Origin: Escherichia phage Turkey3
DNA length: 64,000 bases
Sequence record: PQ471515.1
Reading direction: 5' to 3' (one strand)
The position numbers and the translations under genes are program-made. Under the pieces are notes generated by a model. It saw nothing but the letters and a program-made list of their open reading frames with translations, did not search any database and was not told the origin of the DNA. Below, one piece after another: positions 55,903 through 56,640 of this stretch (positions within the stretch are counted from its first letter, which is position 1; each line of letters opens with the position of its first letter).

Positions 55903-56640
55903 TTAGACTGAATTGTTAGGATAATATCTCCCACGTCCCCATATTATTCGCACAGCACCACCACCAGCAGCCGTATAAGAAGAATTATCCCATATACTAC
56001 CACCACCACCATACCTCTTACCAGCACCACCACTACCAGCACCACCATTATATGAACCATCGTAGCTACCACCAATACCATTAGCACCTTGAACAATGAT
56101 ACCAGTACCACCACCCGTACCAATGAACGAGGTATTATAGAATGCACCACCACCACCGCCACCGCCAGCACCATTTTCACCAGTGATTGCATTTCCGTTA
56201 CCACCTTTACCAGTGTAGCCACCAGCACCACCACCAATGACTGCACCACCACTTAAACCAGTGTTGCCACCATTACCACCACCATCATTAATAGCGTTAG
56301 CAGCTTTTCCACCTAGTCCACCAACCGTATATGCACCAGTGAAGCTAACACATAGTTTTTCAGTTCCACGATATAAACCGTTTTCAACTGCTGTAGTAGT
56401 GTTGGGATGTGTAAGAGAAACACTTAAGTACTCACCACCAGAAACCGGAATATTATTACGCCACGATAAGCCGCCACCAGCACCACGTTGACCACCCGGA
56501 GAAATAACACATACTGATATTTCGGTAACGCCAGCAGGAACTGTAAATTGTGTTGTTCCTATTGTCGTGATTAATTGTTCACCATGTGGCTTATATTCAA
56601 TTTTATTCCCGAACTTAACCATTCTTGCAAAAGGTAACAT
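55903..56640 (-). CDS. MLPF-leader paralog 6, glycine-rich
   Basis: 245 aa; MLPFARMVKFGN followed by body with very high Gly content (runs such as GAGGGGGGGA). Confidence 0.8.
   Translation of the reverse strand: MLPFARMVKFGNKIEYKPHGEQLITTIGTTQFTVPAGVTEISVCVISPGGQRGAGGGLSWRNNIPVSGGEYLSVSLTHPNTTTAVENGLYRGTEKLCVSFTGAYTVGGLGGKAANAINDGGGNGGNTGLSGGAVIGGGAGGYTGKGGNGNAITGENGAGGGGGGGAFYNTSFIGTGGGTGIIVQGANGIGGSYDGSYNGGAGSGGAGKRYGGGGSIWDNSSYTAAGGGAVRIIWGRGRYYPNNSV

Follow-up and report, generated by a model that had tools for sequence, protein, structure and literature searches.

Gene and genomic context

The window (the whole 64,000-nt stretch of DNA analyzed) derives from an Asteriusvirus, a 121Q/PBECO4-like jumbo phage of E. 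coli. Its ORF listing contains a single ORF at positions 55903..56640 of the minus strand, which starts with ATG and encodes 245 amino acids followed by a stop codon. This complete CDS consists of an N-terminal tag and a TNF-like/glycine-rich domain and is the orthologue of 121Q gp243. A tblastn search with the ORF yielded 16 phage records with full-length orthologues at 88–99.6% amino-acid identity, the best of them in phages BF17 (99.6%) and WPEC5 (99.2%). In all records, the orthologue is labelled "hypothetical protein".

A Shine-Dalgarno-like sequence, AAGGAGGG (56645..56652, minus strand), is located 5–12 nt 5' of the ATG. The terminator scan revealed hairpins with 3-nt loops on both sides of the gene. 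The terminator-like hairpin GCCAGTACTCTGTACTGGC with its T-run (56686..56704, minus strand) ends the upstream gene, 56711-57844, and opens a conserved cassette head of ~100 nt; the second one, CAGTACTTGAGTGCTG with a T-run (55878..55893, minus strand), lies directly 3' of the stop codon. Given the Shine-Dalgarno-like site, the flanking terminator-like hairpins and the full-length orthologues, the gene looks real. Three ORFs that overlap it, 55944-56252 (minus strand), 56089-56256 (plus strand), and 56237-56491 (plus strand), were rejected as by-products of GGN/ACC-rich sequence.

Both neighbours of the gene are propeller genes carrying the same tag, and the array as a whole comprises at least 12 independently terminated cassettes that share it. 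A promoter-like motif, AAATATAGTATAA (56659..56671, minus strand), is present in exact copies 5' of four adjacent leader genes, and copies with 1–2 mismatches precede four more minus-strand genes. Four adjacent cassettes, including that of 55903-56640, have an almost identical head of ~100 nt, in which the hairpin GCCAGTACnnnGTACTGGC, a T-run, AAATATAGTATAA, AAAGGAGG, and the leader codons follow one another. Cassettes also differ in their upstream DNA. The cassette head offers an obvious substrate for body swapping by recombination.

Shared N-terminal tag

The N-terminus of the protein, MLPFARMVKFGNK (also given as MLPFARMVKFGN), forms a leader, or tag, of 13 residues encoded at 56602..56640 (minus strand). 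It is common to 12 consecutive minus-strand genes at 49098-63351, this gene included, and occurs on ten genes of Pectobacterium phage CBB (genus Mimasvirus) as well. The 12-residue consensus is MLPFxRhxxYGN, also written MLPFxR[ML]hxYGN. Across the 22 tagged genes (12 from the window and 10 from CBB), M1, L2, P3, F4, and N12 are invariant, Y10 is present in 21 (the window gene alone has F10), and R6 in 17; position 11 is G or A, and positions 7 and 8 are mostly hydrophobic. The codons vary synonymously at P3 (CCT/CCA/CCG), F4 (TTT/TTC), Y10 (TAT/TAC), G11 (GGG/GGA/GGT), and N12 (AAT/AAC), which indicates that selection acts on the tag peptide.

The bodies that follow the tag are unrelated folds: RCC1 propellers, Kelch propellers, Laminin_G_3 lectin-like domains, and the glycine lattice described below. 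No similarity between the glycine-rich body and the propeller bodies was detectable (local scores 38–53). The sequence-only reading had regarded the protein as a paralog within the leader family. This description holds for the first ~13 codons and the upstream cassette, the leader being common to 12 genes; a true paralogous relation of the body to the neighbouring propellers was rejected.

Back-translated tag patterns searched against IMG/VR matched almost only contigs of 348–378 kb, i.e., Rak2-like jumbo phages. In ~48 tagged proteins obtained from these matches, the profile of alignment A1 (see below) found the glycine-rich domain only in the 121Q orthologue (8e-75) and in CBB_144 (1.7e-38). 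Homologues from non-Rak2 phages keep the body and have other N-termini, often M[LI]E[LM]L; tag and body are therefore separate modules. The tag is conserved at the amino-acid level and essentially restricted to the Rak2-like clade.

Another explanation is that the leader is kept for nucleic-acid reasons, as a translation initiation signal or as a tract for recombination or gene conversion, and that the protein is a free non-virion factor. The nearly identical ~100-nt head of the four adjacent cassettes, which extends from the terminator hairpin through codon 13, would fit such a role, as would the TTA codon used for L2 in 21 of the 22 tagged genes. However, CBB and the window agree in the amino acids M-L-P-F, Y10, and N12 but use different codons for them, the upstream DNA differs between cassettes, and tagged proteins occur in the virions of three phages. 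We regard this explanation as very improbable.

Glycine content and domain layout

Glycine accounts for 70 of the 245 residues (28.6%) of the 55903-56640 protein, in comparison with 8–13% in the other leader-bearing proteins of the window. Its density is high at residues 106–210, with 15–16 Gly per 35-residue block (~45%), and the run GAGGGGGGGA occupies residues 157–166. The high glycine content with runs, pointed out in the sequence-only reading, is thus real. Its observation that collagen periodicity is lacking also stands: the glycine autocorrelation for residues 101–245 was 0.12, 0.07, and 0.10 at lags 1–3 and negative at lags 4–9, and these values exclude a G-X-Y period. A collagen-like fibre was ruled out, since the autocorrelation at lag 3 (0.10) was not above that at lag 1 and no Collagen match was found in Pfam.

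Behind the tag, a connector with the sequence IEYKPH (residues 14–19; 56584..56601, minus strand) is poorly conserved, varies in length among homologues in A1, and has a pLDDT of ~71. [quoted passage not shown] They are followed by the glycine-rich subdomain, residues 106–227 (55960..56325, minus strand), in which ~10–11 conserved glycine motifs, including DGGGNGG, GGGAGGY, GAGGGGGGG, GTGGGTG, and YGGGG, are separated by loops of variable length. The closing strand and tail, residues 228–245 (55906..55959, minus strand), carry the signature GAVRIIWGxGRxYP, with W234, G235, and P241 invariant in A1. The protein ends 18 residues past the glycine lattice.

Domain family

The protein matched phrog_4474 over residues 1–244 (6.9e-66). 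A Pfam scan of the query returned no family even at E ≤ 1, and the gathering score of PF21722 ("Glycine-rich domain", Gly_rich_2) was not reached. Homologues numbered 189 among 5.8 billion proteins; most of them are standalone proteins of 240–300 aa encoded on phage-sized contigs. Alignment A1 comprised 40 homologues with 37–95% identity to the query, and PF21722 was found in 11 of the 40. Carriers of PF21722 occur among the homologues at E down to 1e-16 (for example, P0037, E 9.4e-16 with 88% coverage), and the PF21722 profile of 226 positions spans the whole domain. Judging from the phrog_4474 match, the homology to PF21722 carriers and the shared motifs, the query is by homology a member of the PF21722/phrog_4474 family, too divergent or too biased in composition for a direct PF21722 score. 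The family consists of phage and bacterial proteins, and neither library assigns it a function.

Within A1, glycines are kept motif by motif (GGGLSWRN, DGGGNGG, GGGAGGY, GxGGGGGG, GGGxG, and YGGG), together with the invariant non-glycine anchors P35, L58, A139, Y142, W234, and P241. Length varies only in a few loops between the motifs, with insertions clustered at residues 105, 129, 152, 171, 196, and 205. The signatures common to the family are FTVPxGVT, GGLSWRN, GGGNGG, GGGAGGY, and GAVRIIWGxGRx[YF]P; the C-terminal motif GAVRIIWGxGRxYP was present in nearly all of 120 homologues.

At E ≤ 1e-3, the A1 profile matched 5,648 cluster representatives out of 1.84 billion; with the cutoff at E ≤ 1e-30, 1,105 were left. 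The domain is found by itself or as a C-terminal or tandem module of proteins of up to 5,326 aa, and keeps the same boundaries of ~230 residues across the family. In multidomain relatives, it starts at approximately profile position 9–23, which places the leader outside the domain. Its fusion partners include a "tail protein" PHROG (P0127), the N-terminus of a "virion structural protein" (P0134), an F5/8 type C galactose-binding domain (P0193), and Ig domains with tail-fibre PHROGs (P0200). In P0180, an RCC1-like propeller is fused directly to the glycine-rich domain. This protein unites in a single polypeptide both kinds of body found under the leader in the window.

Standalone homologues in Seunavirus NINP13076 and in a 150-kb Plesiomonas-associated phage contig adjoin a DNA polymerase gene or are located upstream of the terminase and do not belong to tail modules; these contexts are uninformative.

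Predicted structure

The AlphaFold2 model was built for residues 2–245 with alignment A1 of 40 homologues. Mean pLDDT was 92.1 and pTM 0.89, with low confidence (<50) at residues 2–10 only. Seven strands were predicted within residues 20–100 and the last one at residues 229–234 (protein numbering). Residues 106–227 had a pLDDT of 86–99 despite almost no helix or strand. Helices were absent from the model except for a 4-residue turn, and no fibrous region was predicted.

The best structure match was the Pam3 tail fibre gp24 with a score of 12.9 (165 residues, 3.0 Å, 17% sequence identity), followed by the Bxb1 tail wing brush gp33 (9.5; 25% identity), the Bxb1 tail spike gp29 (8.6), and the glycine-rich domain of human and invertebrate ALK (7.7–8.2). 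The next match after ALK scored 4.3, and members of the TNF/C1q family scored 3.3–3.9. Foldseek placed the same PDB entries on top (Pam3 gp24, Bxb1, and ALK). Against BFVD, it returned 75 viral models at E ≤ 1e-3, mostly named "Glycine-rich domain-containing protein". The common architecture is a beta-sandwich with a glycine-rich subdomain inserted before the last strand, and the superposition was well above background.

PDB sequences gave no true match to the query in phmmer or to the A1 profile in hmmsearch. The chance matches were an antibody light chain and a 5-HT3 receptor tagged with a Gly/Ser linker. With the PDB sequence and profile searches empty and no Pfam threshold reached, the fold assignment rests on prediction. 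According to the model, the body is most likely a compact TNF-like beta-sandwich with an inserted glycine-rich lattice. By analogy with the fold matches, from which the geometry is taken, the glycine segments probably form a polyglycine-II lattice.

The sequence-only reading had proposed a flexible, low-complexity fibre or linker, to be checked by disorder and fibre prediction. That proposal does not agree with the model, in which the leader alone is predicted with low confidence and no fibrous region appears. As a rival explanation, it was taken as an intrinsically disordered glycine-rich spacer or flexible fibre linking other components. Such a reading could draw on the high glycine content, the glycine runs and the lack of a direct Pfam match, and generic predictors usually call sequences of this type coil (PMC13243192). 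It is opposed by the compact high-confidence model and by specific fold matches well above background. In addition, the glycine motifs are conserved position by position across distant homologues together with the anchors A139, Y142, W234, and P241, and thousands of family members share the boundaries of ~230 residues. Taken together, structure prediction and the conservation pattern effectively exclude a disordered linker, and we consider it extremely improbable. The interpretation offered in the sequence-only reading is supported in part. The low-complexity-looking sequence is most likely a structured polyglycine-lattice domain, as modelled, with a rare fold represented by ALK, S16 gp38, Pam3 gp24, and Bxb1 gp33.

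Comparison with known systems

In Pam3 gp24, a TNF-like sandwich extends into a domain with 39% glycine, in which 12 glycine-rich motifs build a layered lattice (PMC9608196). The variable distal loops of this domain were proposed to bind the receptor, and its likeness to S16 gp38 and ALK was pointed out (PMC9608196). Glycine-rich PPII helical bundles are common to Pam3, Bxb1 gp33/gp29, S16 gp38, and ALK (PMC13243192).

At its N-terminus, the tail fibre gp24 of cyanophage Pam3 (PDB 7YPX) carries an alpha-helical shaft, which forms a trimer and attaches to the baseplate; the fibre requires the adjacent chaperone gp25. In contrast, no helices are predicted for the window protein, which has just a tag of 13 residues and no recognisable fibre-assembly gene beside it. 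Instead of a trimeric helical shaft of the Pam3 type, its residues 1–19 form a short low-confidence peptide. No match to tail-fibre assembly proteins was found among the window ORFs scanned, which included a minority of the small ones.

Gp38 of Salmonella phage S16 (PDB 6F45), an adhesin of the T-even gp38 type, resembles the window protein in that conserved Gly-rich motifs alternate with variable segments (PMC9608196, PMC13243192). The motifs of gp38 form a polyglycine-II sandwich at the tip of the fibre, where this small protein is held non-covalently by the terminus of another fibre protein. The window protein has neither the helical gp37-attachment domain nor the beta-helix middle domain of gp38, and 6F45 was not among its structural matches. 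Mycobacteriophage Bxb1 gp33 and the gp29 subdomain (PDB 9D93) belong to an actinobacterial siphovirus with other attachment partners and do not share the tag. The ALK/LTK domain (PDB 7LRZ, 7LIR, and 7NX3) is larger, with 14 pGII helices; an EGF-like domain and a receptor tyrosine kinase come after it, and its ligands are ALKAL cytokines. Its Pfam family, PF12810, gave neither a Pfam nor a sequence match, and its kinship with the window protein exists at the fold level only.

For the tag, the closest mechanistic precedent by analogy is the 'conserved peptide' of secondary receptor-binding proteins (RBPs) in branched RBP systems. In Klebsiella phages KP32, K11, and KP34, this peptide, like the MLPF tag, is short, N-terminal, and shared among unrelated bodies. 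Without its first 29 aa, KP32 RBP2 was no longer incorporated, and the peptide can bring a foreign body or enzyme onto the virion (PMC13352976). The MLPF tag resembles such a docking peptide as a short N-terminal sequence conserved on unrelated bodies within one clade. It differs in that it has no sequence similarity to the Klebsiella peptide, its bodies are binding modules rather than depolymerases, and 12 or more tagged proteins are encoded per genome, far more than in the Klebsiella systems. The partner of the Klebsiella peptide is the T4gp10-like branching domain of the primary tailspike; no such partner was identified for the MLPF tag.

Short N-terminal sequences may also serve for packaging. 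The internal proteins of T4 carry a capsid-targeting sequence (CTS) of ~10 residues at the N-terminus. Prohead-protease motifs are (L/I)xE in the T4 type and (S/A/G)xE in the phiKZ type. Such motifs follow the tag in some members of the family and are absent in others; their presence is not consistent.

Virion presence and variability in relatives

CBB_144 was detected in CBB virions by ESI-MS/MS with 5 peptides and 34% coverage (PMC5259590). Its sequence matches the A1 family profile over the full length (E 1.7e-38), and its gene is located between nrdD and nrdG. The tagged proteins CBB_536, 537, 548, 549, 551, 552, and 553 were also detected in CBB virions by ESI-MS/MS (PMC5259590). Of the six CBB virion proteins lacking a counterpart gene in GAP32 (list from PMC5259590), five are tagged, namely, CBB_144, 536, 537, 551, and 552. 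In phAPEC6, the virion proteome includes six RCC1 paralogues with low peptide counts (PMC7247149). GAP32 encodes tagged proteins too, and its gp1 is cited as structural (PMC5259590). Overall, tagged proteins are present in the virions of three phages: CBB, phAPEC6, and GAP32. The virion evidence consists of the CBB homologue and of tagged paralogues, both from mass spectrometry by others, a method that gives the same result for external and internal proteins.

The glycine-rich orthologue does not appear in the virion proteome table of phAPEC6 (PMC7247149). This absence is uninformative, since the phAPEC6 copy of the gene is broken and its annotation is limited to gp004, a fragment of 100 aa. 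Virions of an Erwinia jumbo phage contained a 'PE-PGRS family protein' (PMC7760394); the third-best structural match in BFVD is also a 'PE-PGRS family protein', the two being linked by name alone.

The gene differs from the 121Q orthologue in 19 codons only (13 non-synonymous and 6 synonymous changes), from which a dN/dS of ~0.73 was estimated. The conserved glycine motifs of the lattice are free of non-synonymous changes. In a comparison of phage fEgEco12 with its close relative, two "condensation regulators" were among the most divergent proteins (PMC13070987). The dN/dS value and the divergent 'condensation' paralogues resemble the variability of host-interaction proteins.

The main rival to an externally displayed protein is a packaged internal one, ejected with the DNA. 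In this case, the tag would be a capsid-targeting sequence that sends the whole family, this protein included, to the prohead or inner body; on injection of the DNA, the proteins would leave the particle with it. A short N-terminal tag on unrelated bodies does resemble a targeting sequence, mass spectrometry demonstrates virion association of family members without localisation, and phAPEC6 has an inner body for which RCC1-like proteins were suggested as candidate components by the authors (PMC7247149). However, the bodies are propellers, laminin-G/concanavalin-like lectins and a TNF-like/glycine lattice, and their solved and annotated phage relatives belong to the outer structures of tails or fibres. 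That no (L/I)xE or (S/A/G)xE protease motif follows the tag consistently may also speak against packaging, and the family evolves fast between close relatives, as surface-exposed proteins would. We therefore consider an internal location unlikely.

A more speculative rival relates the tagged proteins to the whiskers of the 'hairy' phages CBB, phAPEC6, and fEgEco12. The proteins would be subunits or terminal knobs of these whiskers, attached by the tag head-to-tail or through strand swapping. The tag on five of the six CBB virion proteins without a GAP32 gene agrees with this proposal, and among the tagged proteins recovered, the tagged glycine-lattice protein was found only in Asteriusvirus and CBB, both described as hairy. 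On the other hand, the hairs are ~119 nm long (PMC5259590), whereas the proteins are globular domains of 22–45 kDa for which no fibrous region is predicted. Tagged proteins also occur in GAP32, and the peptide counts of the phAPEC6 paralogues were low. The correlation comes from two or three phages, and hairs may merely be unreported in others. Therefore, a role as hair subunits or knobs seems quite unlikely to us. The literature on hairs or the tag in Asteriusvirus/Rak2-like phages contained no structural description beyond the phAPEC6 and CBB papers.

Proposed role of the protein

We propose, with slightly more confidence than doubt, that the gene encodes a virion-displayed binding module docked via its N-terminal tag, i.e., a small two-part virion accessory protein. 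Residues 1–13, disordered alone, would dock the protein onto a site on the Rak2/121Q-like virion, in the same way as the RBP peptide of Klebsiella podophages docks. Residues 20–245 would provide the PF21722/phrog_4474 domain, the solved relatives of which are distal, ligand-recognising heads of tail fibres and tail decorations. The conserved glycine motifs would form a rigid lattice, and the variable loops a surface binding a component of the host envelope, for which a surface polysaccharide is the likeliest candidate. The array of tagged cassettes, at least 12 in number and each terminated separately, also includes other binding folds and suggests that the phage probably presents several alternative binding heads; the 55903-56640 product would be the sole one of the glycine-lattice type. 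The docking role of the tag, the external location, and a host-glycan ligand are inferences that go beyond the presence of family members in virions.

The non-tail neighbourhoods of the standalone homologues and the position of CBB_144 between nrdD and nrdG were counted against the reading as a binding module.

The fold, the domain family and the docking-peptide principle are already known. New are the fold assignment of a "hypothetical" protein, the finding that it has only the tag and the cassette head in common with the propeller genes, and the clade-restricted tag on at least four unrelated binding folds. In the literature searched, no paper contained a description of the tag or cast doubt on the "DNA condensation" annotation, and the Sharanji paper contains no discussion of these genes.

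The present data provide a fold and a plausible role for a protein labelled "hypothetical" in all Asteriusvirus genomes deposited. Together with these, the shared tag argues that the adjacent genes called "DNA condensation (RCC1-like)" are wrongly annotated and encode binding modules of the virion. A broader idea, which we put forward tentatively and think somewhat doubtful, is that the MLPF tag is a universal 'plug' by which unrelated, fast-evolving binding heads are loaded at a single repeated docking site, perhaps the tail and capsid hairs, as a combinatorial display of adhesins. If this were true, genes that have carried the name 'DNA/chromosome condensation proteins' for a decade would encode binders of the host surface, and the tag could serve as a ready handle for placing foreign cargo on a jumbo-phage virion. 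The tag system is of wider interest than the 55903-56640 protein alone: if the tag is a docking peptide, it would open a route to the composition of phage "hairs" and give a handle for engineering displayed proteins.

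Genomic context of the tagged array

The plus strand of the window carries an ORF for a 'virion structural protein' (34356-35867; phrog_20398, E 1e-244), an HNH/endonuclease-like ORF (41654-42952; phrog_559/681), and an AAA/STAND-like NTPase ORF (45784-46554). Seven back-to-back plus-strand ORFs of 104-123 aa follow at 46622-49061; all have hydrophobic N-terminal segments and resemble one another weakly (pairwise identity up to ~25%), and their counterparts in phage 121Q are gp224-232. They probably form a tandem family of small membrane proteins that has diverged. Near 50 kb, the GC skew changes sign at the switch of gene orientation from plus to minus.

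Tagged genes and their shared 5' heads

The MLPF tag, the common N-terminal leader, starts 12 consecutive minus-strand genes (49098-63351) and occurs as two subtypes, MLPFARMVKYGN and MLPFVRMFDYGN, together with variants. Most of the bodies behind it were RCC1-like propellers. Two genes encoded Kelch propellers (59042-59932 and 60006-60953, both on the minus strand), and a divergent 449-aa protein (54482-55831, minus strand) had no Pfam match. The glycine-lattice protein (55903-56640, minus strand), with its predicted TNF-like/glycine-rich domain, represents one further body type.

Four adjacent intergenic regions (54412-54480, 55832-55902, 56641-56710, and 57845-57915) were near-identical cassette heads, in which a hairpin, GCCAGTACnnnGTACTGGC, is followed by a T-run, AAATATAGTATAA, AAAGGAGG, and the leader codons. 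The homology tract common to the four heads is ~100 nt long and could promote gene conversion or the exchange of bodies. The AAATAYAKTATAA motif also occurred in variant form 5' of three more genes (ends at 50222, 59932, and 62094) and of an unrelated minus-strand gene (14539-15696).

The array ends with a 179-aa ORF (63425-63964, minus strand) lacking the MLPF start and without a match in Pfam or PHROG. One possible explanation is a paralogue that has been truncated or disrupted by a frameshift; another is a break near the end of the window, due to sequencing or a frameshift, with the true start of the ORF on its far side. Split paralogues are present in 121Q too, e.g., gp239/240 and gp234/235.

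Leader and glycine-rich body in other genomes

Outside the jumbo-phage size class, five IMG/VR contigs of 20-200 kb (L019, L020, L021, L024, and L027) gave one match each to the relaxed leader pattern. On translation, most of these gave reading frames of very small size and seem to be fortuitous; the match in L021 was a 548-aa ORF, MLPFYSVKDYAN.

In phage phAPEC6 (MK817115.1), the orthologue of the glycine-lattice protein (7325-8056) aligned in two pieces with 77% covered, owing to a frameshift or else to an error in the sequencing. The broken orthologue is annotated only as the 100-aa fragment gp004 (7716-8018), which explains why the published virion proteome of phAPEC6 could not include the protein. 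A 74% identical metagenomic relative (P0002; 206 aa, 26.7-kb contig) has the N-terminus MNKGGN-KIEYKPHGEQ instead of the MLPF tag, and its start falls in what would be, in the cassettes, the Shine-Dalgarno region read as protein. Either the tag is naturally missing from this variant, or the gene call or the assembly is at fault.

Virion association of the tagged proteins

All ten tagged genes of Pectobacterium phage CBB (KU574722.1; CBB_144, CBB_536-537, and CBB_548-554) have the MLPF...(Y)(G/A)N start; CBB_144 is set well apart from the other nine, with nrdD and nrdG on either side of it. Eight of the ten products were confirmed as virion proteins by MS. Of the six virion proteins of CBB that were reported to be absent from phage GAP32, five belong to the tagged set. 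Public records label the propeller genes of the array as 'DNA condensation protein', which is doubtful in view of the virion MS data and the fold types. In P0180, a 1013-aa homologue from the representative library that also matches a 'tail protein' PHROG, an RCC1-like propeller (510-770) is directly followed by a glycine-rich domain (780-1011). This fusion joins in one polypeptide both body types, which are encoded by separate tagged genes in the window.
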